A stretch of 64,000 bases of DNA from an uncultured Rikenellaceae bacterium (lineage in GTDB: Bacteria > Bacteroidota > Bacteroidia > Bacteroidales > VadinHA17). The translations under genes and the position numbers were made by a program. The notes beneath the pieces were generated by a model. That model saw only the letters and a program-made list of their open reading frames with translations. It was not told the DNA's origin and did not search any database. The stretch covers positions 269-64,268 of the forward strand of contig CAZWUB010000003.1 of assembly GCA_964637415.1 (NCBI GenBank), read 5' to 3'. Below are positions 1 through 63,494 of this stretch, one piece after another (position 1 is the first letter of the stretch; every line of letters begins with the position of its first letter).

Positions 1-936
1 CAGGCGGGTTTCATAATCAGGTCTTTGCAGATCGGCCTGAAGCCCCCATTTGAACCTCGAGAGCAGCCTTTGTTCCATTCCCTGAAGATCAACCGGAGGT
101 TTGTCGCAGGTGAGTATAAGCTGCTTTCCCGACTGATGAAGGTGATTGAATATATGGAAGAATGTGTCCTGGGTCTTCTCTTTTCCGGCAAACTCGTGAA
201 CATCATCAAGTATAAGGACGTCGATCATCTGGTAAAAATGAAGGAAATCATTTTTATTGTTATTCCTCACTGACTCAACAAACTGGGTCTGAAATTTATT
301 GGCATTAACATAAAGGACTGTTTTATCGGGATGTTTTTCCTTCACAAGTATTCCTATAGCCTGAGCGAGGTGGGTTTTGCCAAGACCTGAATCACCGTAG
401 ATCATGAGGGGGTTGAAAGCGGTACCTCCGGGACTGTTTCCAACTGCAATTCCTGCCGATCGGGCAAGCCTGTTGCATTCACCTTCAACAAAATTGTTGA
501 AATTATAATCAGGATTCAGTTTCGGGTCAAAATGAAGCTTTTTTATCCCGGGGATCACGAATGGATTTTTGATAGATGGTTGTGTAACATCGAAGGGGAC
601 CTGAAGCGGCTTGTTATTAAGATCAGTTTTATTCCTCGAAGGATATCTGACAGTATAAGGTTTGCCATCTGAATAATTTGCATTCTCCATTACGACATTA
701 TATTCAAGTTTGGCATCAGTTCCGATCTCTCGTCGGAGCGTTTTTCGGAGAATGTCAATGTACTGTTCTTCCAGGTATTCGTAGAAGAACGGACTGGGTA
801 CCTGGATAGTGAGAATGTTATTCTCAAGTTTGAGTGGTACTATTGGTTCAAACCATGTTTTATAACTGGGCGAAGGGATTATATCCCTTATAATTTGCAG
901 ACAGTTATTCCAGACATCGTGATGCGTTTTGTTCAT
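1..936 (-). CDS. dnaA: Chromosomal replication initiator DnaA, N-terminal ~312 codons; the 3' end lies beyond the window start
   Basis: Open at the window edge, so absent from the ORF track. My reverse-strand translation from the ATG at complement(934..936) gives MNKTHHDVWNNCLQIIRDI...NPLMIYGDSGLGKTHLAQAIG...VLILDDVHEFAGKEKTQ...LILTCDKPP. This shows the DnaA N-domain plus AAA+ Walker A/B. ORF 25..273(+) is an antisense shadow. Confidence 0.9.
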   Translation of the reverse strand, partial: MNKTHHDVWNNCLQIIRDIIPSPSYKTWFEPIVPLKLENNILTIQVPSPFFYEYLEEQYIDILRKTLRREIGTDAKLEYNVVMENANYSDGKPYTVRYPSRNKTDLNNKPLQVPFDVTQPSIKNPFVIPGIKKLHFDPKLNPDYNFNNFVEGECNRLARSAGIAVGNSPGGTAFNPLMIYGDSGLGKTHLAQAIGILVKEKHPDKTVLYVNANKFQTQFVESVRNNNKNDFLHFYQMIDVLILDDVHEFAGKEKTQDTFFHIFNHLHQSGKQLILTCDKPPVDLQGMEQRLLSRFKWGLQADLQRPDYETRL

Positions 937-2236: not shown

Positions 2237-3388
2237 TTATTTCTTCTTTTTCAGGTCCAGTGCCTGTTGTAAAGGTAATATTTTGTTGTCTTTTATTGCA
2301 ATCACAAATGCATCGGGATAAATTTCCTCAATCATCCTTCTGTGTTTCACCGCATCGGCATATTCCCTGAAACTGCCTGTTGCATATTTAAATCGTTCCT
2401 GGACAACGATCTCAATAATATCTGTCAGACCTTTGAAATTTTCCGGCTTGATCCCGGTCCTTGCTGAAGCTGAGGAAACCTGCACCCTGAAAACGATACC
2501 ATCGTCTGTCTTGACAGTTTCACCGGAAGCCTGATTGTCTTTCATCAGGATCTCTTTCTCTGCTATTGAGAAATTGCTCATATTATCAATATCGTTTATA
2601 TAGTCGCGGCAAGCCCTGTAGATTGCAGATGCCAGGTAATCCTGTCCCTGTTTGGAATTAAGGTACTTCTCCTCAGCGGCATTGGTTATAAATCCGGTTT
2701 CAATAAGCACGCTGGGCATTGAAGTATTGAAGAGTACCCAGAATCCTGCCTGCCTGACGCCTCTGTCATTCCTGTTGGCTCTCTCTTTGAACTGAGTCTG
2801 CACTTTCATTGCCAGATCGGCGCTCTGCTTCTGGAAAACATTCTGTGTAAGCGTGAAAATAATATATGATTCCGGTGATTTCGGATCAAAGCCCTGGTAT
2901 TTTGTCGAATAATCTTCTTCCAGAAGGATAACCTCATTTTCTTTCATGGCCACGGCCAGGTTATCTTCATCTTTCGCGAGTCCCATTATATATGTTTCAG
3001 GACCTGATACATTTTTGTTTTTTGCCCAGTTTGCATGTATTGAAATAAACAGATCTGCTTTGTTCTTATTTGCAATCTGAGGTCTGTCGAGAATATCGAC
3101 AGTGGAGTCATCTTCCCTTGTATAGACAACCTTTACATTCTTAAGATTTTCAGTCAGGTATTCACCTGTTTTCTTTGCGATTGCAAGGTTTATGTTCTTT
3201 TCCTGGCTGAATGATCCAAGTGCACCGGGGTCCCTGCCTCCGTGTCCGGGATCTATGACTATAACCCACAGGCCATTTGTTTTAAAGGCGGGAGTGGCAT
3301 TAACATTGAGGGTAATTAAAAAGAGAGCGAATGCAACACTATATATATAAATGGTATGGTGTTTGCCGTTTTTATAAACTGTGCACAT
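2237..3388 (-). CDS. N-acetylmuramoyl-L-alanine amidase (Amidase_3) with C-terminal SPOR-like domain
   Basis: The ORF extends to 3724, but the plausible start is the ATG at complement(3386..3388). That start gives MCTVYKNGKHHTIYIYSVAFALFLITLNVNA (signal-like). Motifs follow: VIVIDPGHGGRDPGA, DLFISIHAN, PSVLIETGFITN. The C-terminus IVFRVQVSS...AFVIAIKD resembles SPOR. Confidence 0.85.
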   Translation of the reverse strand: MCTVYKNGKHHTIYIYSVAFALFLITLNVNATPAFKTNGLWVIVIDPGHGGRDPGALGSFSQEKNINLAIAKKTGEYLTENLKNVKVVYTREDDSTVDILDRPQIANKNKADLFISIHANWAKNKNVSGPETYIMGLAKDEDNLAVAMKENEVILLEEDYSTKYQGFDPKSPESYIIFTLTQNVFQKQSADLAMKVQTQFKERANRNDRGVRQAGFWVLFNTSMPSVLIETGFITNAAEEKYLNSKQGQDYLASAIYRACRDYINDIDNMSNFSIAEKEILMKDNQASGETVKTDDGIVFRVQVSSASARTGIKPENFKGLTDIIEIVVQERFKYATGSFREYADAVKHRRMIEEIYPDAFVIAIKDNKILPLQQALDLKKKK

Positions 3389-3428
3389 ATTTAGTTCGCG
3401 TTTTTTTAATAGTTTTACCGCCGACATC

Positions 3429-6137
3429 ATGACGTCACACAAAAACAGTACAAAAATAGTATTTAAGTTGTATTTTATTAAAGAAAAGCGGTTACTTGTA
3501 GTGTTCTTCGTGATGCTCCTGTCTGTTTCTCTGTTCTCCCAGGAAGACATTATTAAGCCTGATTCGCTGATTATCAGGCCTGATTCAACTATTACCGACA
3601 CTGTTTTCCTCAAAAGAATCTCTCCGGAAGCTATTGAAAAACAGGTAACATATAAGGCTGAAGGGTATAAGAGGAATGATCTTATAAGTAAAAAATCCAC
3701 CCTTGTTAAGAATGCTGAAGTCAATTACGACAATATAAAGATCACTGCAGATTCAATCGAGTTCAACATGGAGACAAGCCAGGTGTTTGCCACCGGTATC
3801 AAAGATACTGCCGGGATAGTTCAGGGAAAACCGGTTCTGGTGGTCGGTTCGGAAACATATAATGCCGATACACTTACTTACAACTTCAAAACAGGTCAGG
3901 CAGTGGTTAAGGTCATAGTCACATCGCAGGAGGATGGACTTCTCAGGAGTAAAATAGCAAAAATGCTCGATGACGGAACAACGAACATTTTTAAAAGTAC
4001 TTATTCCACATGCGATGCTGATACACCACATTTCTATATCAGCCTGCCGAGAGCAAAAGTCTATCCCGGTAAGAAGATCATTTCCGGACCGGGTAACCTT
4101 GTGCTCGAGGGGATCCCATTACCCTTGTACCTTCCTTTCGGGTATTTTCCTGTCCAGACAAAAAGAGCAGCATCAGGAATAATTATGCCAAAGCCACATT
4201 ATGAGGAAGGTCGCGGATATGCACTTACAGATGGCGGTTATTACTTCGCCCTTAATAACTATTTTGATCTGACTCTCAAGGGAAATATATTCACAAACGG
4301 TTCATGGCTCGGGACTGTAGCTACCAATTATAATAAAAGGTATAAGTACAGTGGTAATTTTTCTTTTACATATGCAAACAATGTAAATGGTCATAAGGGA
4401 TTATCTGATTATAGAAAAGCTGCAAACTACAGTATCAACTGGTCATATAACCAGAATGCCAAGGCAAGGCCGGGATCAAGGTTCTCGGCAAGCGTAAATA
4501 TGAGTTCCAGCGGATTCGACAGGAATAACAGCTATAATCTGAATGATCATATAACAACACAACGGCAGTCGAGCATCAGTTATTCGAAATCATGGGAAGG
4601 GACCCCTTTCAACTTTTCAGCCAGTATGAACCACAGTCAGAATATAAGAGGAAAATATCCCACAGTGAATCTTAACCTTCCTAAGCTTAATTTCAGCATG
4701 TCGAGAATATATCCTCTGAAAAGCAGAAAAAGAACTGGTCCCGATAAATGGTACCAGGAACTCTCATTTTCATATTCGGCAAAAGTCGACAATCAGATAA
4801 GTACCTACGACAGCCTTCTCTTTACAAACAAGGTGTGGAATAATATGAGATCCGGATTTTCTCATGAAGTGCCTCTTAGCTTCCAGCTCCGGCCTTTCAG
4901 GAATTTCTCCATTTCACCCTCAGTTTCATACAATGGTGTAATGTATACCCAGAAAATAAACAAAACATGGGATATAAATTACAGAGATCCCGAAACGGGC
5001 GAGATCACCCCTATTGTTGTAAAGGATACCCTGAGGGGATATTTCTATGGTCACTCAATAAACCCGTCAATAAGTGCCGGTTACAGTCCCCAGATCTTCG
5101 GGTTGTTCCAGTTTACCAATCCCGAATCAAGGGTTCAGGCAATAAGACATGTTATGAAGCCATCGGTAAGTTTCAGTTATATACCCTTTCTTAAAGGATT
5201 CAGTACACAGATGTACAGACAGGTACAGTCTGATACAACTGGTAGGATTGATGATTATTCGATATTTGAAGGAGGGATATATGGCACTCCGTCATTATCA
5301 AGGAAAAGCGGAAATGTATCCTTCAACCTGACAAATATTCTTGAGGCAAAAGTATTTGAGCGTAACGATACCACAGGGAAACCAAAAAATGTAAAGCTTA
5401 TTGATAATTTCGGTCTTTCCACATCTTATAACGTGTTCGCCGATTCACTGAGATGGAGCCCTCTTAACATGGTTATGCGTACTCGTCTTTTCGAAAACAT
5501 AAATGTTTCTGCAGGAAGTAATTTCTCGTTCTACGCACTCGACAGCAAAGGAAATCAAACAGCTAAGTTTTATTATTCTGAAACCGGGAAACCGCTGCGT
5601 CTGACCAATGCAACAATGAGTCTCGACTTGAGCGTAAATGAACTGCTGAGCCGTGATGAATCCAAGAAGAAATCCGAAACCACTCAGAATAATGCGGACC
5701 AGAGAAATTTTTCGGGTCTGGATAGCCGTGAGAGTAATCTCCCGGGTGCTGACAGAGCAGGGACTGAAAGTGCAGGAGTTTTCGACGAGTACGGATATAT
5801 GGAATTCGACGTGCCGTGGACAATGAATGTTGCCTACAGCATCAATTATACAAAGCAATACAATAAATCACTGCTGAGCCAGACCCTGAGTATTAACGGG
5901 AACATGTCACTTACGAAGAAGATGAACCTTACATTCAACAGTGGTTATGATTTTACCAGGAAAGAAATTACAATGACCCAGATTGCGATAACACGCGATC
6001 TTCATTGCTGGGACATGTCGTTTAACTGGGTTCCCAACGGAACAGTTAAAATGTGGGAGTTCTCGATAAGGGTTAAGGCAGCTGTATTGTCAGACCTTAA
6101 GTATGAGAGAAGGAAGGATTATCATGATAATTATTAG
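3429..6137 (+). CDS. lptD: LptD/OstA-like LPS-assembly outer-membrane protein
   Basis: The ORF opens at GTG 3381. ATG 3429 (MTSHKNSTKIVF...VVFFVMLLSVSLFSQ) gives a signal-like N-terminus. An OstA-like segment (ITADSIEFNMETSQVFATG...YNADTLTYNFKTGQAVV) is followed by a ~700-aa beta-rich region, as in Bacteroidota LptD homologues. The start is uncertain. Confidence 0.7.
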   Translation: MTSHKNSTKIVFKLYFIKEKRLLVVFFVMLLSVSLFSQEDIIKPDSLIIRPDSTITDTVFLKRISPEAIEKQVTYKAEGYKRNDLISKKSTLVKNAEVNYDNIKITADSIEFNMETSQVFATGIKDTAGIVQGKPVLVVGSETYNADTLTYNFKTGQAVVKVIVTSQEDGLLRSKIAKMLDDGTTNIFKSTYSTCDADTPHFYISLPRAKVYPGKKIISGPGNLVLEGIPLPLYLPFGYFPVQTKRAASGIIMPKPHYEEGRGYALTDGGYYFALNNYFDLTLKGNIFTNGSWLGTVATNYNKRYKYSGNFSFTYANNVNGHKGLSDYRKAANYSINWSYNQNAKARPGSRFSASVNMSSSGFDRNNSYNLNDHITTQRQSSISYSKSWEGTPFNFSASMNHSQNIRGKYPTVNLNLPKLNFSMSRIYPLKSRKRTGPDKWYQELSFSYSAKVDNQISTYDSLLFTNKVWNNMRSGFSHEVPLSFQLRPFRNFSISPSVSYNGVMYTQKINKTWDINYRDPETGEITPIVVKDTLRGYFYGHSINPSISAGYSPQIFGLFQFTNPESRVQAIRHVMKPSVSFSYIPFLKGFSTQMYRQVQSDTTGRIDDYSIFEGGIYGTPSLSRKSGNVSFNLTNILEAKVFERNDTTGKPKNVKLIDNFGLSTSYNVFADSLRWSPLNMVMRTRLFENINVSAGSNFSFYALDSKGNQTAKFYYSETGKPLRLTNATMSLDLSVNELLSRDESKKKSETTQNNADQRNFSGLDSRESNLPGADRAGTESAGVFDEYGYMEFDVPWTMNVAYSINYTKQYNKSLLSQTLSINGNMSLTKKMNLTFNSGYDFTRKEITMTQIAITRDLHCWDMSFNWVPNGTVKMWEFSIRVKAAVLSDLKYERRKDYHDNY

Positions 6138-6255
6138 TAAGCGGTAATCAGTAATCAGTAATCAGTAATCAGTAATCAGTAATCAGTAATCAGTAATCTG
6201 TAATCAGTAATCAGTAAGCGGTAATCAGTAAGTAGTAAGCAGTAAGCAGTAGTAA
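6137..6255. repeat. Heptanucleotide tandem array, about 17 units of GTAATCA and variants (GTAAGCG, GTAATCT, GTAAGTA, GTAAGCA)
   Basis: Read directly. Seven consecutive perfect GTAATCA units span 6144..6192. The array begins at the G of the lptD-like stop codon TAG (6135..6137). Confidence 0.95.
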
Positions 6256-6269
6256 ATGTACGGAATCCT

Positions 6270-6304
6270 GAACTCCAAACTCTAAACTTCAAACTCCAAA
6301 CTTA
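6270..6304. repeat. Second heptamer array, AAACTYC-type, 5 units
   Basis: Sequence reads gaactcc aaactct aaacttc aaactcc aaactta. It ends 6 nt before the ridA ATG (6311). Confidence 0.85.
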
Positions 6305-37075: not shown

Positions 37076-38110
37076 ATGGAAATAAAATTCGGATTTGCCA
37101 GTGACAATACCGCTGGTATTCACCCTGCTATACTGGAGGAGATCCGGTTGGCAAACATGGGTCATGCAATTAGCTATGGATATGATAAGTATACTGAAGA
37201 GGCTCTGAAACTTTTTAAAGAACATCTGGGACCAGAAACTGAGACTTTTTTTGTCTTCACAGGGACTGCTGCAAATGTTTTAAGCCTGTCAGGGGTTACC
37301 CGTTCATGGAATTCCGTTATAACAGCTTCAACAGCACATCTTGAACAGGATGAATGCGGAGCTCCTGAAAAATTTACCGGATGTAAGGTACTGACAGTTG
37401 ATACAGTTGACGGGAAAATATCTCCCTTATCTGTTGAAAAACATATGCACGGATTTGATTTTGAGCACCATTCTCAGCCTATGGTTATTTCAATAACCCA
37501 GTCTACAGAACTGGGAACTGTATATTCAGTTGCTGAGATCCGGGATCTTTCAGAATTTGCTCATCACCATGGCATGCTTCTGCATATGGATGGGGCCAGG
37601 ATAGCTAATGCAGCCGTTTCACTCAACCTGCCGTTCAGGTCATTCACAACCGATGCAGGAGTAGATATTTTATCTTTCGGGGGTACCAAGAACGGTATGA
37701 TGTATGGTGAAGCAGTCTGTTTTCTGAGCAAAGGTCTATCCGGCGGATTCAAATATATCCGGAAACAAAGCATGCAGCTGGCATCAAAGATGAGGTTCAT
37801 TTCAGCACAGTATATTGCATATTTCAGGGATGATCTCTGGAAGAAATGTGCTGAACATTCAAACAGAATGGCGTTAATTCTTGCAGAAAAAATAAGCAGA
37901 CTGAACGGAATAAAAATTACACAACCTGTTCAGTCAAATGGTGTTTTTGTAATTATGCCACAAAGTGTTGCAGAAAGTGTTTGCAGGAAATATTTCTTTT
38001 ATCCATGGGATGAAAAGACTTCGGAGTACCGGCTTATGACTGGGTGGGATACAACGGAGGAGGATATTTCTGAATTAGTTGAAATTCTTAAAAGAGAATT
38101 AAAAATGTAG
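37076..38110 (+). CDS. ltaE: Low-specificity threonine aldolase family (PLP-dependent)
   Basis: Reads FASDNTAGIHPAILEEI...FTGTAANVL...HMDGARIANA...LSFGGTKNG (PLP lysine context). 344 aa. Confidence 0.82.
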   Translation: MEIKFGFASDNTAGIHPAILEEIRLANMGHAISYGYDKYTEEALKLFKEHLGPETETFFVFTGTAANVLSLSGVTRSWNSVITASTAHLEQDECGAPEKFTGCKVLTVDTVDGKISPLSVEKHMHGFDFEHHSQPMVISITQSTELGTVYSVAEIRDLSEFAHHHGMLLHMDGARIANAAVSLNLPFRSFTTDAGVDILSFGGTKNGMMYGEAVCFLSKGLSGGFKYIRKQSMQLASKMRFISAQYIAYFRDDLWKKCAEHSNRMALILAEKISRLNGIKITQPVQSNGVFVIMPQSVAESVCRKYFFYPWDEKTSEYRLMTGWDTTEEDISELVEILKRELKM

Positions 38111-38135
38111 GGACATGCCATGGCATGTCCCTACA
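38106..38135. terminator. Perfect 30-nt palindrome between convergent ltaE and tonB
   Basis: tgtagggacatgcca|tggcatgtccctaca, with all 15 positions paired. It includes the ltaE stop TAG (38108..10). The A5 run at 38101..05 gives a U-tail for the minus-strand (tonB) transcript. Confidence 0.55.
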
Positions 38136-43556: not shown

Positions 43557-43687
43557 AGCTGTTTTTTTATTTTGGTGTCAATAATACTAATTTTTCTTTT
43601 ACACTTGTCTTTAACTTATATATTTAATACTTTTTAATACTCATCTTTCACCGACTGGTTATTAATCCCTGGCTCTGTTACTTACTT

Positions 43688-43716
43688 ACCCACCCCCATC
43701 CCCTCCCGGGAGGGGA
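43688..43716. repeat. C-rich box (ACCCACCCC) followed by a 16-nt perfect GC palindrome CCCCTCCCGGGAGGGG
   Basis: The palindrome is at 43700..43715. The box plus CCTCCCG recurs at 53247..53275, and a relative occurs at 52297..52343. Confidence 0.8.
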
Positions 43717-43738
43717 GCCACTGATTCGTCACACACGC

Positions 43739-43791
43739 CTCACTACTCACTACTCACTACTCACTACTCACTACTCACTACTCACTACTCA
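43739..43791. repeat. Heptanucleotide tandem array (CTCACTA) x7 plus a partial unit
   Basis: Seven perfect units span 43739..43787. On the minus strand each unit is TAGTGAG, and the first TAG (complement 43785..87) is the stop codon of the PstS-like gene. Confidence 0.95.
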
Positions 43792-44819
43792 TTCCTTATC
43801 TGCACCAGCCTTATCGGCATTGTTGCAGGTACAAGCCCTGATTTAAGAACGATCCTCTGACCCTGTTCAGCGGTTGCCCACTGAATAAAACCTGCACCAA
43901 GCCCTTTAAAAGTTTCCCTTGTGATGAGAAAGACTTCTCTAACAAAGGGATAGGATTTATCATAGATCCAGCCCTGATCTGGTCGGTAATAAGAACCATC
44001 GTCCAGAATTGGTCGTGATATTCCCAGAATATTTACTTTATTTCTGAAACCAACACTTGTCGCATCATCCTTGTCGCTTATCCAGTTCACACTTACAATA
44101 CCCAGGGCATCCGGATTCCTTGAAACAAATTCTATGACTTCGGGATTGGTATTAACTGCATAGAAATTACCGGGTAAAGCTTCTTTTATTTCAAAAAGCT
44201 CCTTAAAGAACCTGATGTTACCCGATTTTGTATTGTCAAATATAACACGTATATCTCCAAGCTTTGATTTGGGATCAAGATCTTTCCACGATACTGCTTT
44301 TCCAAGGAAAATATCGCGAACCTGTTCGTATTTAAGCAATGTATCCTGATTCTCCTTATTTGTTACAAGTGCCAGTCCGTCGTAAGCAAAAGTGATTGTA
44401 CGGGCAACGATAAGACTGTCTCTTAAATATTTTATCTGATCTTCAGTAAGTTTTCTGCTTGTGACTATAACTTTTACTGAATCGTTCATGAAATCATTAA
44501 TCACATCAAACTCAGGTTTATACTGGGGTTTGATTTTCGCATTTGTATAAAGCTGTGTGAAAGTTGAAACTTCAGTATCAATAACCGGCTGGAACGACTC
44601 GTCTGCAGTAATTTTTATATTACCTCTGGTTGGTGTCTCATCAGTTGCCGTACCTCCTCCCATGCATGAATACAAAGCTATGAGAGACAGGCTGAGTACA
44701 GCAAACATAAATGAATTAAGGATTTTGTTTTTCCGGACACCTTTATTTTCATAAATAGCCTGCAGTATTTCCCGCGGGGAGATCATCCTGTATTTCTTAA
44801 TTAATTCCGGAATACTCAT
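43785..44819 (-). CDS. PstS-family phosphate-binding-protein-like lipoprotein
   Basis: Lipobox SLIALYSC, then GNIKITADESFQPVIDTEV...SGNIRFF...ALGIVSVNW, a periplasmic-binding fold of PstS type as I recall. The start is uncertain (M1 or M12). Confidence 0.65.
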   Translation of the reverse strand: MSIPELIKKYRMISPREILQAIYENKGVRKNKILNSFMFAVLSLSLIALYSCMGGGTATDETPTRGNIKITADESFQPVIDTEVSTFTQLYTNAKIKPQYKPEFDVINDFMNDSVKVIVTSRKLTEDQIKYLRDSLIVARTITFAYDGLALVTNKENQDTLLKYEQVRDIFLGKAVSWKDLDPKSKLGDIRVIFDNTKSGNIRFFKELFEIKEALPGNFYAVNTNPEVIEFVSRNPDALGIVSVNWISDKDDATSVGFRNKVNILGISRPILDDGSYYRPDQGWIYDKSYPFVREVFLITRETFKGLGAGFIQWATAEQGQRIVLKSGLVPATMPIRLVQIRNE

Positions 44820-46535: not shown

Positions 46536-46936
46536 GCAGCAGGCTGGTCCGTCGTCCCGCTTCAGGCGGGAAGGAAAGTCCGGGCAACAAAGAGCACCAT
46601 GCTACCTAACGGGTAGATATCCGCGAGGGTATAGTAGTGTAACAGAAAATTACTTCCGGTCAAAAACTGCGAAGGTCAGCCTTCGTCAGGACTTAGGCCG
46701 GTAAAGGTGAAAAGGCGGGGTAAGAGCCCACCGGTTTCTGTGGCAACACGGGAAGCCGTACATCTCATGGGTTGAAAGATCATGTATACCGGCAGTGAGG
46801 GCTGCTCGTCCGACGCCGGGGGGTAGATCGTATGATCATACCAGCAATGGTATGACAAGATAAATGACGGAAAACGGTTTCAATTTCTTTCGCAGAAGAC
46901 GAAACCGGACAGAACCCGGCTTACAGGCCGGCTGCA
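46536..46936 (+). ncRNA. rnpB: RNase P RNA (bacterial type A)
   Basis: The universally conserved blocks are read on the plus strand: GGAAGGAAAGTCCGGGC, ACAGAAA, CCGGTAAAGGTGAAAAGGCGGGGTAAGAGCCCACCG, CAAGATAAATGAC, ACAGAACCCGGCTTAC. The 5' GCAGC and 3' GCTGC pair as P1. ORF 46676..46858(-) is spurious. Confidence 0.92.
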
Positions 46937-46939
46937 TAT

Positions 46940-46970
46940 TGTAGAGACGCCCAAATTGGGCGTCTCTACA
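46940..46970 (+). terminator. Intrinsic terminator after rnpB (also downstream of the convergent LolA-like gene)
   Basis: tgtagagacgccca / tgggcgtctctaca forms a 14-15 bp perfect stem, followed by aattttattt on the plus strand. Confidence 0.7.
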
Positions 46971-52409: not shown

Positions 52410-53180
52410 ATGAAACTATCAATAATCCAGCCTGATACAAAATGGGAAGATAAAAACGCCAATTTCAGTATCCTCGATAAAATGATATCTGAACTTGACA
52501 GCGATACAGACCTCATAATCCTCCCTGAGATGTTTAATACCGGATTCTCCATGGATACCGGAAAGCTTAGTGAATTGACGGGCGGTGAAACTTATGACTG
52601 GATGAAAAGCATATCGGAGAAACGATTGTGCGCTATCTGCGGAAGCTATATTGTCCGGTCGGGCAGGAACTTTTATAACCGGTGGGTTTTCGTAGCTGAT
52701 GACGGTAAATCGTGTTATTACGATAAACGCCATCTTTTCAGTATGGGGGGCGAGCAATTGAATTTCTGCCCGGGTAAAAAACGTATTACATTCAGCTTCA
52801 GAGGTGTAAAGATCTTTCCGGAAGTATGTTATGATTTAAGGTTTCCTGTATGGAGCTATAACACAAACAACTATGACCTGTTAATCAATACAGCTAACTG
52901 GCCTGAACCAAGGAGAGATGTCGGGATGACTCTTCTCAGAGCAAGGGCACTCGAAAATCAATGCTATGTTGCCGGGGCAAACAGGGTAGGGAAGGACGGT
53001 TTGGGAATTTCATATACCGGAGATTCTCTTATTGTCAACCCCCGTGGAGAAACACTGGCATTCGCGGAAAAGAATAAGGAGTGCTCATTAACTGCTGAAA
53101 TATCAATTCCTGAATTAAAGAAATTCCGGAAAATTTTCCCTGTTCTCAAAGATAAAGATAAGTTCAGGCTCGTTCTTTGA
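52410..53180 (+). CDS. Carbon-nitrogen hydrolase (nitrilase superfamily, omega-amidase YafV-like)
   Basis: The Glu-Lys-Cys triad contexts are LPEMFNTGF, YDKRHLF and EVCYDLRFP. 256 aa. Confidence 0.8.
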   Translation: MKLSIIQPDTKWEDKNANFSILDKMISELDSDTDLIILPEMFNTGFSMDTGKLSELTGGETYDWMKSISEKRLCAICGSYIVRSGRNFYNRWVFVADDGKSCYYDKRHLFSMGGEQLNFCPGKKRITFSFRGVKIFPEVCYDLRFPVWSYNTNNYDLLINTANWPEPRRDVGMTLLRARALENQCYVAGANRVGKDGLGISYTGDSLIVNPRGETLAFAEKNKECSLTAEISIPELKKFRKIFPVLKDKDKFRLVL

Positions 53181-53205
53181 TCTTTGATCCCAAATCCATT
53201 TTCCC

Positions 53206-53239
53206 CTGTGCCCTGAGCTCTGTGCCCTGAGCCCTGAGC
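53206..53239. repeat. Short tandem repeat CTGTGCCCTGAGC x2 plus CCTGAGC (GCCCTGA heptamers)
   Basis: Read directly. Lies 26 nt after the nitrilase-family stop. TGA is present in each GCCCTGA unit on the plus strand, and there are no stops on the minus strand. Confidence 0.8.
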
Positions 53240-53246
53240 ATAAAAT

Positions 53247-53275
53247 ACCCACCCCTTGCCTCCCGCTGCGCGGGA
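53247..53275. repeat. C-rich box ACCCACCCC-TTG-CCTCCCG plus hairpin TCCCGC-tgc-GCGGGA
   Basis: It shares ACCCACCCC, a 3-nt spacer and CCTCCCG with 43688..43708. Confidence 0.75.
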
Positions 53276-53313
53276 CAAGCTCTCCCAAGAGGGGATTCTA
53301 TGCTCGTCACTTA

Positions 53314-53348
53314 CACCTCACACCTCATGCCTCATCTCTCATGCCTCA
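53314..53348. repeat. Heptamer array (CACCTCA, CACCTCA, TGCCTCA, TCTCTCA, TGCCTCA)
   Basis: On the minus strand every unit starts with TGA. The stop codon of the FAD/Fe-S oxidoreductase (complement 53339..41) is the TGA of unit 4, and unit 5 lies inside the CDS. Confidence 0.85.
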
Positions 53349-56290
53349 TCCCTTCCTCTCAACGCCCTGTACAAGATCTCTGCAGGATGGAGCGCTATCT
53401 TTCCTGTACCATCTTTAATATGATGTCGGCAACTTGTCCCGGGAGCTGCTATAATTACATCATCTTCAGCTGCCCTGACTTCTGGAAACAGGATCATTTC
53501 ACCGATTTTGGTGGCAAGTTCATAATGTTCTTTTTCATAACCGAATGATCCTGCCATGCCACAGCAACCTGAAGGTATTTCCCTGACATTATAATTCTTT
53601 GGTATTGAGAGTATTTCAATCGTATATGAAGAAGACGATACGGCTTTTTGCTGACAATGCGCATGCAGAAGAATGTCCGATTTTGTGTCAGCGAATGAAT
53701 CACTTGTTATTCTTCCTGCCCTGTATTCGCGTGAAATAAACTCGTCAACCATAAAGCTGTTACCTGCAATCCTCACGGATTCTTCTTTAAGATCCGAATC
53801 CACAAGTTCGGGATATTCATCCCTGAAACCCAGAATGGCAGAGGGTTCTATTCCGATCAGAGGCAAACTCTCACTGACGACTGCTGACAGCCTTTTAATA
53901 TTGTCACCGGCTATCTTCTTAGCAGTTCTGATGAAACCTTTTGAGAGATATGTCCTGGCACTTTCCCCATGCTTTACAGTTATAACCTGATACCCGAGTT
54001 TTGTGAGGAGAAGTACGGTCGAAATACCTGTTGATGTATCATTGAAATTAGTGAATTCATCGATAAACAGACATACTTTTCCCTTCGGTTCAGGCGGATT
54101 AATCAGCCTGAGATTCCTGGCTGCCCAGTTTCTCAGGGTGAACTTATACAACACCGGTATAGATCTTTTCGCTGCTATTCCGATAACTTTCTTGAACAGC
54201 CCGGAGGTCACCTTATTTCTTACAAAGAAATTGAATATGGGAGGTGCAACCGATCCTATTCTGTTGATTGTTGTTATATATGCGACCAATATTGTACGAA
54301 GGGGAATCCTGTGGTTATCATGCCAGTGTTGCAGAAATTCTGCTTTAAGTTTTGCTATATCCACACCCGATGGACACTCCGATTTGCATCCCTTGCAGGA
54401 AAGGCAAAGTTCAAGGATTTCATAGATCTCCCTGTGATCCCAGGGATTTGATTCATCTTTACCCAGGAATTCCCTGAGAATGTTGGCTCTTGCTCTGGTA
54501 CAGTCCTTCTCTTCGCCGGTAGCCATGAAAGACGGGCACATTGTTCCTCCGATTTCTTTCGTCTTACGGCAATCGCCTGAGCCATTGCATTTTTCAGCTG
54601 CTCTTAGTATTCCTTCCGTTGATGAGAAATCAAATATTGTTTGTATTTCAGGTATTTTTTCCCCGGGAATATACCTCAGGAAGGTATTCATCGGAGGTGT
54701 ATCAGTTATTTTCCCCGGGTTGAGAAGGTTGTGCGGATCCCAAATCTTTTTTAATTCTTTAAGCAGATTATAATTATGTTCACCGATCACCAGCGGAATA
54801 AATTCTCCCCTCAGCCTTCCGTCTCCATGTTCTCCGCTCATCGACCCCCTGTATTTTTTTACAAGCTTCGCAGTTTCAAAACCCAGGGTCCTGAAAAGTT
54901 CTGCATCAGCAGGATCTTTGAGGTTCAGAACAGGTCTGATATGCAATTCACCCGTACCGATATGGGCATGATAAACTACATCCTTGTCATATCTGGCCAG
55001 CATTTCCTCAAAATCCTCTATATAACGGGGTAAATGCTCAACGTTTACGGCAGTATCTTCAATAAGTGAAACCGGTTTAGGATCTCCTTTCATATTGGCA
55101 AGCACTCCAAGTCCCGCTTTCCTCAGCGCCCATACCTTTGCTATGTCCCTGCCTCTGACAACAGGATATGCATAACCGTAAGGTATTGACCTCAGATCGT
55201 TTATCATATCCGAAATGACCGATTCCAGCTCCTCAGGGCTTTCTCTCTCAAATTCAACAATAACTATCGATTCAGGCCTGCCATCAAGGAAGAACCTGTT
55301 TCCCCTCTGACTTATATTATTCTCTGTCAGATCAAGGATCCTGTCATCCATCATTTCCACTGCTGACGGTTTATATTTCAGGGCGACAAGATTTGTCAGG
55401 AAGGCATCATTTCTTTTCTTCAGATGAATGCAGACAAGGGCCTTATGAGGTGGCGGCAGTTTGACAAGGTTGAGCTTTATTTCCGTAACAATGGCAAGGG
55501 TCCCTTCAGATCCTGCGATCAGATCACAGAAATTAAAAGGTCTGTGTGAGTCTTTATTGAACACAACACTGTCGAGGAGGAGATCCAGTGCATAACCGGT
55601 ATTCCGCCTGGGTATCTTCGGATCAGGATACCCGTTTATAATCTGCTCCCTGTTTTCGGGATTTTCAAGCATTTCATTTATAGACCTGTAAAGATCTCCT
55701 TCAAGACCGGGAAGCAGGCATTTCTTATCAAAGGATTCCTTTTCAATGGGACCGAAAACGGCTATACTGCCATCGCTGAGGACTGTTTTGAGTTCCAGTG
55801 TATGATCTCTGGTGGAACCGTAAATAAGCGAATGGGAACCGCAGGCATTATTTCCTACCATTCCACCAATATTGCATCGGTTTGAGGTTGATGTTTCGGG
55901 TCCGAAGAATAATCCTTTCTCCTTCAAAACCATATTCAGTTCATCAAGTACAACACCGGGTTCAACCCTGACCCACATCTCCTTCTCATTTATTTCCAGT
56001 ATATTTTTCATATACCTTGAGATGTCTGCAATTATACCTGAGCTTACAACCTGACCGGCCAGGGATGTCCCTGCAGCTCTCATTGTTACAGCGATTTTTT
56101 CGCGGGATGCAAAAGCAAGAATTTTCCTGATGTCCGATTCGTTCTTTGGCCATGCAACAGCAAGCGGAACCTCCCTGTAAACAGAAGCATCAGTCGAATA
56201 GATTGTTTTTGTTATTATATCCCGTTTCAGATCGCCGTCGAGACTGCTCCCGAGTGTATCAAGTCCTGATAATAAAGTATCGTTTTCCAT
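53339..56290 (-). CDS. Large FAD-binding (GlcD-like) plus 4Fe-4S / CCG-domain oxidoreductase (YdiJ-like 2-hydroxyacid dehydrogenase type)
   Basis: The ORF extends to a TTG at 56476. ATG at complement(56288..90) gives MENDTLLSGLD. FAD domain VTMRAAGTSLAGQ, ferredoxin motifs CNGSGDCRKT..CPS and CLSCKGCKSECPSG, and C-terminal CCG-type HCQQKA / SGCCGMAGSFG. Confidence 0.8.
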   Translation of the reverse strand: MENDTLLSGLDTLGSSLDGDLKRDIITKTIYSTDASVYREVPLAVAWPKNESDIRKILAFASREKIAVTMRAAGTSLAGQVVSSGIIADISRYMKNILEINEKEMWVRVEPGVVLDELNMVLKEKGLFFGPETSTSNRCNIGGMVGNNACGSHSLIYGSTRDHTLELKTVLSDGSIAVFGPIEKESFDKKCLLPGLEGDLYRSINEMLENPENREQIINGYPDPKIPRRNTGYALDLLLDSVVFNKDSHRPFNFCDLIAGSEGTLAIVTEIKLNLVKLPPPHKALVCIHLKKRNDAFLTNLVALKYKPSAVEMMDDRILDLTENNISQRGNRFFLDGRPESIVIVEFERESPEELESVISDMINDLRSIPYGYAYPVVRGRDIAKVWALRKAGLGVLANMKGDPKPVSLIEDTAVNVEHLPRYIEDFEEMLARYDKDVVYHAHIGTGELHIRPVLNLKDPADAELFRTLGFETAKLVKKYRGSMSGEHGDGRLRGEFIPLVIGEHNYNLLKELKKIWDPHNLLNPGKITDTPPMNTFLRYIPGEKIPEIQTIFDFSSTEGILRAAEKCNGSGDCRKTKEIGGTMCPSFMATGEEKDCTRARANILREFLGKDESNPWDHREIYEILELCLSCKGCKSECPSGVDIAKLKAEFLQHWHDNHRIPLRTILVAYITTINRIGSVAPPIFNFFVRNKVTSGLFKKVIGIAAKRSIPVLYKFTLRNWAARNLRLINPPEPKGKVCLFIDEFTNFNDTSTGISTVLLLTKLGYQVITVKHGESARTYLSKGFIRTAKKIAGDNIKRLSAVVSESLPLIGIEPSAILGFRDEYPELVDSDLKEESVRIAGNSFMVDEFISREYRAGRITSDSFADTKSDILLHAHCQQKAVSSSSYTIEILSIPKNYNVREIPSGCCGMAGSFGYEKEHYELATKIGEMILFPEVRAAEDDVIIAAPGTSCRHHIKDGTGKIALHPAEILYRALRGRDEA

Positions 56291-56475
56291 ATTTGTTTTT
56301 AGCGCTGCTAATTTAGAAAAATGATTTGATCGTGTTTTTAATAAGAAGTTTAATATGATTTTTTTTTGAAAAGTTAAAAGCCTGACAATAATCATATATG
56401 ACAAAATTGCATATTCACACTTTTTTTCCTTACATTTAGGACCTGTTTTAGAAGTAATTAATTTATTGATATACA

Positions 56476-57477
56476 ATGGACTTATTGGATAGCATCAAAG
56501 AGAAAGCCAGGAAACATAACAAACGGATAGTGCTTCCTGAGGGATATGAAGAAAGAACAATTAAGGCAGCAGATATTGCAATATCTGAAGGGCTGGCACA
56601 GATAATTTTGTTGGGTGATCCGGAGGAAATGAAGGCACATGCTGAAAAACTCGGTTTGAAAAATATATCAAGGGCCACTATGGTAGACCCCAGGTCAAAT
56701 CCCATGAAAGACCATTACACAGATATAATGGTAGAGTTGAGGAAGAATAAAGGCATGACCAAAGAAGAGGCATTAAGGCTTATTGAGGATCCGCTTTACC
56801 TGGGAGTACTTATGATAAAGAACGGAGATGCTGATGGTGAGGTATCCGGTGCCGATCACTCAACAGGTGATGTTCTGCGTCCGGCTTTCCAATATGTAAA
56901 GACTGCACCAGGTATATCTGTGGTGTCGGGCGCGTTCATAATGATTCTTCCCGATAAGAGTTTTGGTGAAAACGGAGTGATAATTTTTGCAGATGGAGCT
57001 GTGCATCCCAACCCTACTGATAAGGAACTTGCAGAAATTGCAATTGCATCGGCCAGCACTGCACGAACCCTTGGTGGTTTCGAACCCAAAGTTGCACTTC
57101 TTAGCTTTTCCACAAAGGGCAGTGCAAAGCACGAACTTGTTGATAAAGTTATAAGTGCAACCAGAATTGCACAGCAGATGGCTCCGGATCTTATACTGGA
57201 TGGCGAACTGCAGGGCGATGCAGCTCTTGTGGAAGCAATAGGAATAAAAAAGGCCCCGGGAAGCAAAATTGCAGGTAAGGCCAATGTACTTGTATTCCCT
57301 GACCTCAACTGCGGAAATATTGCATATAAACTGGTACAAAGACTCGCTCACGCCGAAGCTATAGGCCCTATCCTCCAGGGTATGGCTGCACCTATAAATG
57401 ATCTGTCACGCGGCTGCTCGGTCAGCGATATAGTAAGTATGATAGCAATCACAGCAAACCAGGCTGCAGGAAAATAA
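56476..57477 (+). CDS. pta: Phosphate acetyltransferase (short, PTA_PTB-only type)
   Basis: Reads RIVLPEGYEERTIKAA, GDADGEVSGADHSTGDVLRPA, NVLVFPDLNCGNIAYK. 333 aa. Confidence 0.9.
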   Translation: MDLLDSIKEKARKHNKRIVLPEGYEERTIKAADIAISEGLAQIILLGDPEEMKAHAEKLGLKNISRATMVDPRSNPMKDHYTDIMVELRKNKGMTKEEALRLIEDPLYLGVLMIKNGDADGEVSGADHSTGDVLRPAFQYVKTAPGISVVSGAFIMILPDKSFGENGVIIFADGAVHPNPTDKELAEIAIASASTARTLGGFEPKVALLSFSTKGSAKHELVDKVISATRIAQQMAPDLILDGELQGDAALVEAIGIKKAPGSKIAGKANVLVFPDLNCGNIAYKLVQRLAHAEAIGPILQGMAAPINDLSRGCSVSDIVSMIAITANQAAGK

Positions 57478-63225: not shown

Positions 63226-63330
63226 TTTCACAACCCATCCATCCCTTCACCTTAATTTCTATTCACAACTCTATCCCTTCCCATTCCACTTGATTCGTTT
63301 CATAACCCTATCCCTTCCCTTCCCCTTAAG
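63226..63330. repeat. Three direct ~26-nt pyrimidine-rich repeats (TTCAyAAC-CyATCCCTTCCC-type), period 35-37 nt
   Basis: The copies start at 63226, 63261 and 63298, as read directly from the sequence. Confidence 0.75.
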
Positions 63331-63344
63331 GTTAAGGGGAAGGG
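63317..63344. repeat. Near-perfect 28-nt palindrome CCCTTCCCCTTAA-gg-TTAAGGGGAAGGG
   Basis: The 13-bp arms at 63317..29 and 63332..44 were verified base by base. Confidence 0.9.
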
Positions 63345-63368
63345 TCACTAAAGTTGAATCTATGTTAC

Positions 63369-63398
63369 CCCCCTTCCCTTGGTCTTAAGGGAAGGGGG
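63369..63398. repeat. Hairpin CCCCCTTCCCTT-ggtctt-AAGGGAAGGGGG
   Basis: The 12-bp arms at 63369..80 and 63387..98 were verified. A further half-copy AAGGGGGAAGGG lies at 63402..13. Confidence 0.9.
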
Positions 63399-63438
63399 AT
63401 AAGGGGGAAGGGTTAAGATATGCAAGAGGGGAAGAGAG

Positions 63439-63494
63439 GATGAGGAGATGAGGAGATGAGGAGATGAGGAGATGAGGAGATGAGGAGATGAGGA
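63439..63494. repeat. Octanucleotide tandem array (GATGAGGA) x7, perfect
   Basis: Read directly. The minus-strand ORF 63360..63629 (SSSPHLLISSSPHLL...) is just its translation. Confidence 0.95.

Follow-up and report, generated by a model that had tools for sequence, protein, structure and literature searches.

A perfect array of heptanucleotides reaches into the 3′ end of a gene for a PstS-like substrate-binding protein in the window (the whole stretch of DNA analysed here, 64 kb long with a G+C content of 40.9%). On the gene strand every repeat unit carries stop triplets, and one of them is the stop codon of the gene. The question raised by this locus is whether the array and its stops are a selected attribute of the gene end or a repeat that grew at a stop codon already in place.

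The heptanucleotide array and the 3′ end of the PstS-like gene

The region is composed of the following features, all on the minus strand:

43785..44819, minus: gene of a PBP_like_2/PstS-family-like substrate-binding protein, 344 aa (PF12849, TIGR02136)
43788..43794, minus: GAATGAG, the terminal heptamer of the coding sequence, 5/7 identical to the repeat unit and in register with it
43785..43787, minus: TAG stop of the PstS-like gene, the first TAG of the array, followed by an in-frame TGA
43739..43791, minus: perfect heptanucleotide array (CTCACTA)x7.6, which reads TGAG(TAGTGAG)x7 on the gene strand (TRF, sequence and frame check)
43687..43732, minus: GC-rich core GTGACGAATCAG..CTCCCCTCCCGGGAGGGG..GGGGGTGGGTA with a short hairpin, adjoining the array
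43689..43707, minus: canonical G-quadruplex-type motif GGGAGGGGATGGGGGTGGG, in the core and not in the array
43557..43686, minus: rest of the spacer to the start of the TPR gene (43556), defined by comparison with relatives

TRF describes the array by a period of 7, 7.6 copies, 100% matches, the unit CTCACTA and a score of 106. A chance origin in the 64-kb window is ruled out (a perfect 53-nt run of period 7 has 46 forced matches, giving ~64000 x 4^-46). The PstS-like ORF terminates as ...ATA AGG AAT GAG TAG. Its TAG (43787..43785) lies within the array and the TGAG from the last two codons is array sequence too; apart from these 7 nt the array is found outside the coding sequence and its stop. 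When the array is translated, stops appear in the three minus-strand frames and in none of the three plus-strand frames. The first-pass annotation had proposed that a perfect CTCACTA array supplies the PstS-like stop through TAGTGAG, closing all three sense frames and leaving the opposite strand free of stops, and this description is upheld by TRF, the ORF coordinates, the sequence and the translated frames. No ORF of at least 50 aa crosses the array on the stop-free plus strand in the ORF list of the window.

The array has the attributes of prokaryotic long simple sequence repeats (SSRs): a unit between 1 and 11 nt repeated head-to-tail beyond chance length, a unit length that is not a multiple of three in non-coding DNA, and copy-number steps of whole units between close strains (see below). 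A change in copy number does not shift a reading frame, as it does in contingency loci. The first in-frame stop is in the first unit, so that the PstS-like protein does not depend on copy number. GG does not occur in TAGTGAG, which therefore lacks the runs of at least three G with which four units could form a G-quadruplex (G4).

The PstS-like protein matches PF12849 (PBP_like_2), and the PstS family model TIGR02136 with 91 bits, under the model cut-off. Its gene heads the conserved row PstS-like-TPR-ExbB-ExbD-ExbD-TonB. Homologues bearing names are annotated as Bacteroidales or Bacteroidia MAGs. The position of the C-terminus is common to all of the 120 homologues listed (66-90% identity), which finish in ...VQI(K/R)N or ...(N/T)E*. 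In L012-L014 (82% identity) the array is absent and the gene ends AAC GAG TAA|GGAAAAAAT, that is, directly at the region conserved upstream of the TPR gene. The shared end in the listed homologues and the array-free L012-L014 indicate that the NE* end and the stop position are ancestral. The suggestion that the array replaced an ancestral C-terminus of this gene is thereby contradicted; a pre-existing stop was used. The last ~70 nt of the spacer segment 43557..43686 are conserved even where relatives have neither array nor core, and hence probably correspond to the promoter and leader of the TPR gene. A scan for promoter and terminator consensus sequences around the array found nothing.

Strain variation and repeat unit turnover

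Copy number differs between near-identical strains. Over 3.6 kb the contig L001 (GCA_034677305.1) matches the window at 99.07% identity, and a single 7-nt indel separates the two arrays: that of L001 reads TAGTGAG GAATGAG (TAGTGAG)x6, with 7 nt inserted relative to the window. In other strains the 14 nt GAATGAG TAGTGAG are duplicated, a net gain of 7 nt versus the window. Both alleles are present among contigs 99.9-100% identical to the window. The sequence TGAG TAG TGAG, ancestral in the focal clade, provides a 4-nt microhomology with a 7-nt spacing across the stop, and the 14-nt duplication in L001 shows probable slippage using this TGAG microhomology.

The exact PstS-like protein is found on 13 contigs, and 7 of the 8 shown end within the array, 18-37 nt past the stop. 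Short-read assemblies of the species (L001-L009, L216) repeatedly break there, at the same distance from the stop. Arrays thus break short-read assemblies exactly at gene ends. They are systematically under-represented in short-read MAGs for this reason, and a census based on such MAGs is biased downwards.

In more divergent relatives the sequence next to the stop is retained and the unit changes. 'TAG TGAG' is kept in L011, L135, L136 and L215-L219 (PstS-like protein at least 82% identical), and L009 has TAA G TGAG. The unit found behind this shared sequence is TGAGTAG in the window, (TGAGAGG)x8 in L215, L216 and L135, and TGAGTAG followed by (TGAGGAG)x12 in L136. L009 carries a (GTGAGTT)n array, L217-L219 a CTCAGGG-type array and then (GTGAGTG)x3-5, and L011 TGAG, a 26-nt hairpin element and then GTGAGTAGTGAG. 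These differences fit an old array with rapid unit turnover. In orthologues at 65-80% identity, unrelated purine-rich heptamers are found directly past the stop (GATAAAA x9, GACGGAA x6, TAGGCAG x13, AAAAGGC, GCGTGAG, GTGTGAG, AATTGGG, AGTTTGG), and others have no array.

The 26-nt hairpin element, CCACCGAAGCTTTAGC(R)TAGGTGG, occurs inside heptamer arrays at the PstS-like gene end of two distant lineages, in L011 (10985..11020), where GTGAGTAGTGAG is on both of its sides, and in opposite orientation in L144-L146 (~1240..1265 in L144). Possibly this is a little palindrome that is mobile and inserts preferentially into arrays.

Altogether, the 71 distinct versions of the orthologous PstS-like 3′ region extend from no array to 16 copies, with many units. 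A short-period array is present in 42 of them, with period 7 in 33. The array starts -12..+8 nt from the stop end in 25/71, and at the second base of the stop in 10, which fits arrays that have their beginning in the stop codon. Across 791 kb of family loci, ~25 period-7 arrays are placed at the PstS-like end and ~9 at all other 3′ ends combined, while none of 43 is inside a gene. Arrays are ~20 times more frequent at the PstS-like 3′ end than at other gene ends of the same loci, a hot spot that a purely neutral model does not explain. In the 71-version series one can follow cleanly, in natural bacterial sequences, how a microsatellite is born, how its unit turns over and how selection pins its boundary.

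The GC-rich core and other hairpins

A core related to the one adjoining the array is found at 53246..53312, between two arrays of opposite orientation. The form common to the family is GTGACGA..hairpin..GGGGTGGGTA, or more fully GTGACGA .. CCCCTCCC-loop-GGGAGGGG .. GGGGGTGGGTA, positioned just past stops and often flanked by heptamers; a G-quadruplex-type motif is present on its sense strand. GGGGTGGGTA has two exact occurrences in the window, and the 10-nt core end GTGACGAATC, searched in the window with 2 mismatches, is at chance level. The family is present at both loci in close relatives (L215, L217-L219); L170 and L196 have it at the PstS-like gene end, where L188 has a related hairpin and GGAGTGGGTA. 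REP/BIME-type elements are imperfect palindromes with a conserved head that occur in many copies and are mobilised by a RAYT transposase. The focal array itself is not palindromic; the adjoining core has a short hairpin, with at least 2 copies in the window and others in relatives.

No inverted partner of the focal array was found. Predicted RNA folding of the PstS-like 3′ region has z = -2.0 versus shuffles, with the array unpaired save for weak G-U pairs, and that of the convergent spacer at 53 kb z = -1.4. These values are not clearly better than shuffles, and a structured RNA at either 3′ region is not supported. A search of the whole window against Rfam at gathering thresholds returned RNase P RNA only (class A, 46536..46939, plus strand, 235 bits). 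It lies between the QueA gene and one whose counterparts in relatives have a weak TP_0789-like Pfam match. In L137 and L183, hairpins of related C-run/G-run type, with TTGGGGGTGGGT behind them, are located downstream of the RNase P RNA. The window also contains REP-like perfect palindromes with GTAG heads, TGTAGGGACATGCC|ATGGCATGTCCCTACA at 38106..38135 and TTGTAGAGACGCCC..GGGCGTCTCTACAA at ~46940..46970. The GTAG head of the former holds the TAG stop of the gene 37076..38110, so that hairpins overlap stop codons here too.

Other arrays of the window and the tail of the YdiJ-like gene

The other period-7/8 arrays and the sites with array-encoded tails are:

6136..6251, plus: AGTAATC x16.6, with a first unit that starts within the TAG stop (6135..6137) of ORF 3381..6137
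6271..6302, plus: AACTCCA x4.6 array, ending 8 nt upstream of the start (6311) of a RidA-family gene
53174..53189, plus: TCTTTGA x2.3, in which the TGA stop of an amidohydrolase gene and the 4 preceding bases are duplicated
53204..53239, plus: CCCTGAG/CCCTGTG x5 array, 23 nt past the amidohydrolase stop, with TGA on the sense strand of that gene
53313..53353, minus: GGCATGA/GAGATGA/GGTGTGA array holding the last 4 codons and the TGA stop of a YdiJ-like gene
63439..63494: perfect octamer array GATGAGGA x7
53339..53356 in the window, 1568..1670 in L011, 3272..3320 in L136 and 2208..2236 in L196: array-encoded tails of YdiJ-like genes

Stop codons are overlapped by 4 of the 7 period-7/8 arrays of the window; two of the four (6136..6251 and 53174..53189) come in addition to the sites of the first-pass annotation. 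The amidohydrolase gene (52410..53180, plus) has its TGA within TCTTTGA x2.3. The YdiJ-like gene (53339..56476, minus) stops at 53339..53341, and its array reads GATGAGG/GGCATGA on the minus (sense) strand. It had been claimed that the orientation rule of the focal array also applies at two further sites, delimited here as 53204..53239 and 53313..53353; this holds, with stop triplets on the sense strand at both. The AACTCCA array has no G on the sense strand, the opposite polarity, as found at 5′ ends. The repeat units differ at every locus of the window. Arrays of AGTAATC are shared by the window (6136..6251) and L072, a Verrucomicrobiales MAG (162..188 and 4860..4886). The octamer array is preceded by a G-rich hairpin cluster (CCCTTCCCCTTAAGG TTAAGGGGAAGGG and related). 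Over 400 nt separate this whole region (63260..63494) from the closest end of an ORF, and beyond it the DNA is AT-rich and without long ORFs up to the end of the window.

Replacement of a C-terminus, rejected above for the PstS-like gene, does apply to the YdiJ-like gene (FAD/Fe-S oxidoreductase), in which an array encodes the final 1-6 residues and relatives have different tails. Five orthologues end in ALK*, ALRK*, ALRD*, VLKFGV* and ALRGRDEA*. In the last three the residues after the LY(R/K)(A/V)L motif (or after its next residue), as well as the stop, are encoded by the array. The tail arrays are composed of heptamers or octamers (in L011 the octamer (GGGACTGA)x13) and start inside the coding sequence. 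Arrays can thus rewrite the last residues of a protein.

Placement and strand polarity across phyla

Genome contigs were scanned for TGAGNNN x4, yielding at least 120 loci of Planctomycetota, Verrucomicrobiota, Acidobacteriota, Cyanobacteria, Bacteroidota, Chloroflexota and other phyla. The census covers these loci from other genomes and 86 family loci, with flanks of related contigs of up to 10 kb. Genes were assigned by greedy longest-ORF calls, an approximation. TRF on the listed loci provided a second set, made up of 157 additional period-7/8 arrays chosen without regard to sequence. Of the 246 arrays that TRF found among the census loci listed, 198 have a period of 7.

Arrays of both sets are concentrated at 3′ ends. 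Among the listed loci, 33 arrays are at most 8 nt from a 3′ end against 10.7 expected under uniform placement in the free spacer, about a threefold excess, and 24 against 8.5 in the TGAG set, which substantiates the predicted bias toward the 3′ ends of coding sequences. Taking the TGAG strand as top strand, 36 of the 137 arrays at the loci listed have the stop of a top-strand gene close to their start (-30..+25 nt); it lies inside the array in 16 of these, and 15 are in phase with the repeated TGA. The stop of a bottom-strand gene is beside the other end in 6, plus ~4 read-through cases. Among the listed loci, stops are confined to the sense strand in 32 TGAG-type arrays and to the antisense strand in 7. 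Of the arrays not selected by sequence, 49/157 are within 25 nt of a 3′ end at the loci listed, and carry stops on the sense strand only (22), the antisense strand only (4), both strands (10) or neither (13), with p = 5e-4 for sense-only against antisense-only. The expected sense-strand bias of stops is thus apparent in both sets of listed loci (22 vs 4, and 36 vs 6 + ~4).

Where an array touches or overlaps the stop, G is in excess on the coding strand, both in the focal array (G - C = +23 on the sense strand) and in 37 of 48 3′-abutting arrays of the listed loci (37 vs 11). We considered the background composition of 3′ flanks as the cause and rejected it, because array-free flanks have a G/C ratio of only 1.16-1.20. 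The polarity is much stronger than that, and some selective or mutational asymmetry must be at work.

Further regularities were observed in the census. Arrays placed 2-15 nt upstream of start codons are G-poor, with a CTCA-type sense strand in 20 + ~15 versus 7 of the listed loci. Some TGAG-type units recur across phyla, TGAGTGC in at least 13 loci and TGAGGAC and TGAGAGT in at least 8 each; it seems that certain heptamers are more prone to expansion. Two arrays built from one heptamer are often arranged head to head (TGAG..spacer..CTCA) at a distance of 14-117 nt, forming potential long hairpins with tandem-repeat stems. Convergent pairs exceed divergent ones by 9 to 1 among the loci listed (L031, L053, L070, L075, L078, L079, L111, L129). 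Identical inverted units would not be produced by independent slippage alone.

Stops as a likely by-product of composition

Stop triplets contain no C, and a C-poor strand is automatically rich in stops. The stop content expected from composition was estimated by shuffling the bases within each unit. Arrays of the listed loci that lie wholly downstream of the stop have 14 sense-strand stops against 12.5 expected, and those that overlap the stop or the coding sequence 16 against 11.0. An excess confined to the overlapping arrays follows by construction. Among the 13 stop-less arrays 10 start -1..+4 nt from the stop and 10 have G>C on the sense strand. Selection for sense-strand stops, which had been offered as one explanation of the orientation, finds no support in the arrays downstream of the stop (14 vs 12.5), nor in the stop-less arrays, which abut the gene end equally tightly. 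The shuffling and the stop-less arrays together indicate that the underlying regularity is a strand polarity of composition and not of stops; the stop-rich strand looks like a by-product and not a selected feature. For genome annotation, a stop codon inside a repeat carries no meaning per se.

The other explanation advanced was seeding of arrays by duplication of the stop codon plus 4 flanking bases. As a general rule, copying of the upstream coding sequence is rejected, the heptamer just upstream of arrays having 2.5 matches to the unit versus a background of 2.6. Because the upstream heptamer is no closer to the unit than background, an array seeded from the end of the coding sequence is indistinguishable from a neutral spacer filled up to the stop. 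The left edge of the arrays is sharp, most often at the second base of the stop. The last two positions of a stop codon may be AA, AG or GA without loss of function, which makes them the first ones open to an A/G-rich unit. The sharp edge fits a duplication that includes the stop as well as an array that spreads through neutral DNA until selection halts it.

Origin of the array and alternative explanations

We interpret the focal array, with a probability of about 0.7, as a hypermutable heptanucleotide long SSR that occupies the unconstrained spacer between the PstS-like stop and the GC-rich hairpin core. Slipped-strand mispairing in 7-nt steps would make it grow, shrink and change its unit, while purifying selection on the gene itself would hold its gene-side edge in place. 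The ancestral sequence was probably '...AAT GAG TAG TGAG', with TGAG twice at a spacing of 7 nt, which puts repeat and stop in the same register. Translation of the protein always ends at the first TAG, whatever the copy number, and the protein is never altered. The presence of TAG and TGA in each unit would result from the unit including the stop and from 3′-end arrays being C-poor and G-rich on the sense strand. No function is indicated for the array, which is most likely neutral or nearly so; a role in mRNA stability or termination is conceivable.

The array could belong to a composite extragenic element, REP/BIME-like or terminator-like, in which two arrays flank a GC-rich hairpin core; the element would spread or persist as a unit, and its TGAG and CTCA units would pair across the core in a longer stem. 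The core family is indeed found beside arrays at 43687..43732, at 53246..53312 and in relatives, and at 53.2-53.35 kb the core is set between a TGAG-type and a CTCA-type array with periodic pairing in the predicted fold. TGAG..CTCA inverted pairs, often of identical units, outnumber divergent ones 9 to 1 at the listed loci, and the 26-nt hairpin sits inside arrays in L011 and, inverted, in L144-L146. However, the focal array has no inverted partner, the folds are unremarkable (z = -2.0 and -1.4), Rfam has no match there and no terminator-like site was found. Array and core also come apart, arrays being found without core in L136, L153, L168 and L177 and a core without array in L170. We regard such an element as unlikely here. 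The array could instead be selected as a multi-frame stop buffer against readthrough and frameshifting that keeps ribosomes off the downstream hairpin and promoter region. The TGA in frame after the TAG, the closure of all frames and the excess of sense-strand stops at the listed loci (sense-only 22 vs antisense-only 4 in 3′-abutting arrays, 32 vs 7 in TGAG-type arrays) are what such a buffer would look like. One backup stop would be enough, however, and seven units are unneeded; close relatives (L012-L014) are array-free. Arrays wholly downstream hold only the stops expected from composition (14 vs 12.5), 13 of the 49 3′-abutting arrays have no stop on either strand and are equally tight to the gene, and the GGGAATC arrays of Xanthomonas, stop-free by eye, have the same polarity (PMC4692102). 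This makes selection for stops very unlikely.

Copy number and unit vary between near-identical strains, and SSR-based switches are well known in bacteria (see also PMC4679880); in a contingency (phase-variation) locus, copy-number changes would turn the PstS-like gene or the downstream TPR-ExbBD-TonB genes on or off or adjust how strongly they are expressed. This is a highly improbable explanation, since the protein is unchanged at any copy number of an array that starts at the stop, over 140 nt separate the array from the promoter-like segment that is conserved upstream of the TPR gene, and such arrays are found at housekeeping gene ends across many phyla. A more general process is conceivable, in which heptamer arrays are actively nucleated or preferentially expanded in a strand-specific manner at translation boundaries across phyla, G-rich on the sense strand after stops and C-rich before starts, with hot spots at gene ends and inverted pairs serving as bidirectional 3′-end hairpin stems. 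Transcription-coupled single-strandedness or R-loops that promote slippage of the non-template strand are a possible cause. We consider this reading unlikely; what speaks for it is that the polarity exceeds background composition, together with the ~20-fold hot spot. If it is true, gene ends such as that of the PstS-like gene would be long-lived hot spots, and inverted array pairs would have been recruited as bidirectional 3′-end hairpin stems. The cause of the polarity and the PstS-like hot spot are the only leads toward something new.

Comparison with known repeat systems

Heterocystous cyanobacteria carry STRR (short tandemly repeated repetitive) heptamers, which are tandem, non-coding and often downstream of genes. 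STRRs are built from few genome-wide consensus units, whereas in the window, which belongs to another taxon, the units differ at each locus. Contingency loci resemble the focal array by a slippage-prone SSR with copy-number variation between strains, and differ from it because the array starts at the stop, causes no frame shift and is not placed between promoter elements.

Among prokaryotic long SSRs the heptanucleotide class is the commonest, and slippage of the polymerase along a contact of ~7 nt has been put forward to account for it (Mrazek et al. 2007, as cited in PMC4679880 and PMC4692102). According to these citing accounts, the heptamers of this class are, like the focal array, perfect head-to-tail 7-nt units of intergenic location and beyond-chance length; they are patchy among lineages and variable in copy number, and period 7 dominates our census too. 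On the same accounts nothing essential distinguishes the focal array, found in an uncultured Bacteroidales with a TAGTGAG unit that includes the stop of the gene.

The closest similarity in placement is to the G-rich heptamers of Xanthomonas and Nostoc (GGGAATC and GGGGA(T/C)T), which are on the coding strand when at most 50 bp from the stop or overlapping it; upstream of starts it is the non-coding strand that bears them (Rehm et al. 2015, PMC4692102). The census arrays share with them the position at or overlapping the stop and the G-rich coding strand, and in both cases length and sequence vary widely between close relatives (PMC4692102). TAGTGAG differs by having no G-runs, so that no G-quadruplex is possible, the G4-type motif being located in the adjacent core; it also has stop triplets, which the Xanthomonas unit has not. 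The TAACTGA repeats of Beggiatoaceae, Cyanobacteria and some Bacteroidetes, for which 7-nt indels between strains and assembly breaks were reported (MacGregor 2015, PMC4679880), are like TAGTGAG in being intergenic, with two stop triplets and 7-nt indels. They are mostly found just upstream of starts, in forward orientation and with one unit across genomes (PMC4679880), while TAGTGAG is at a 3′ end and specific to locus and lineage.

Elements of this class, and their tendency to sit at stop codons, have been described before. What is new is a Bacteroidales example whose unit contains the stop, together with a long comparative series at one orthologous stop codon, the ability of arrays to encode the last residues of the neighbouring YdiJ-like protein, and the extension of the strand polarity to many phyla and to units unable to form G4.
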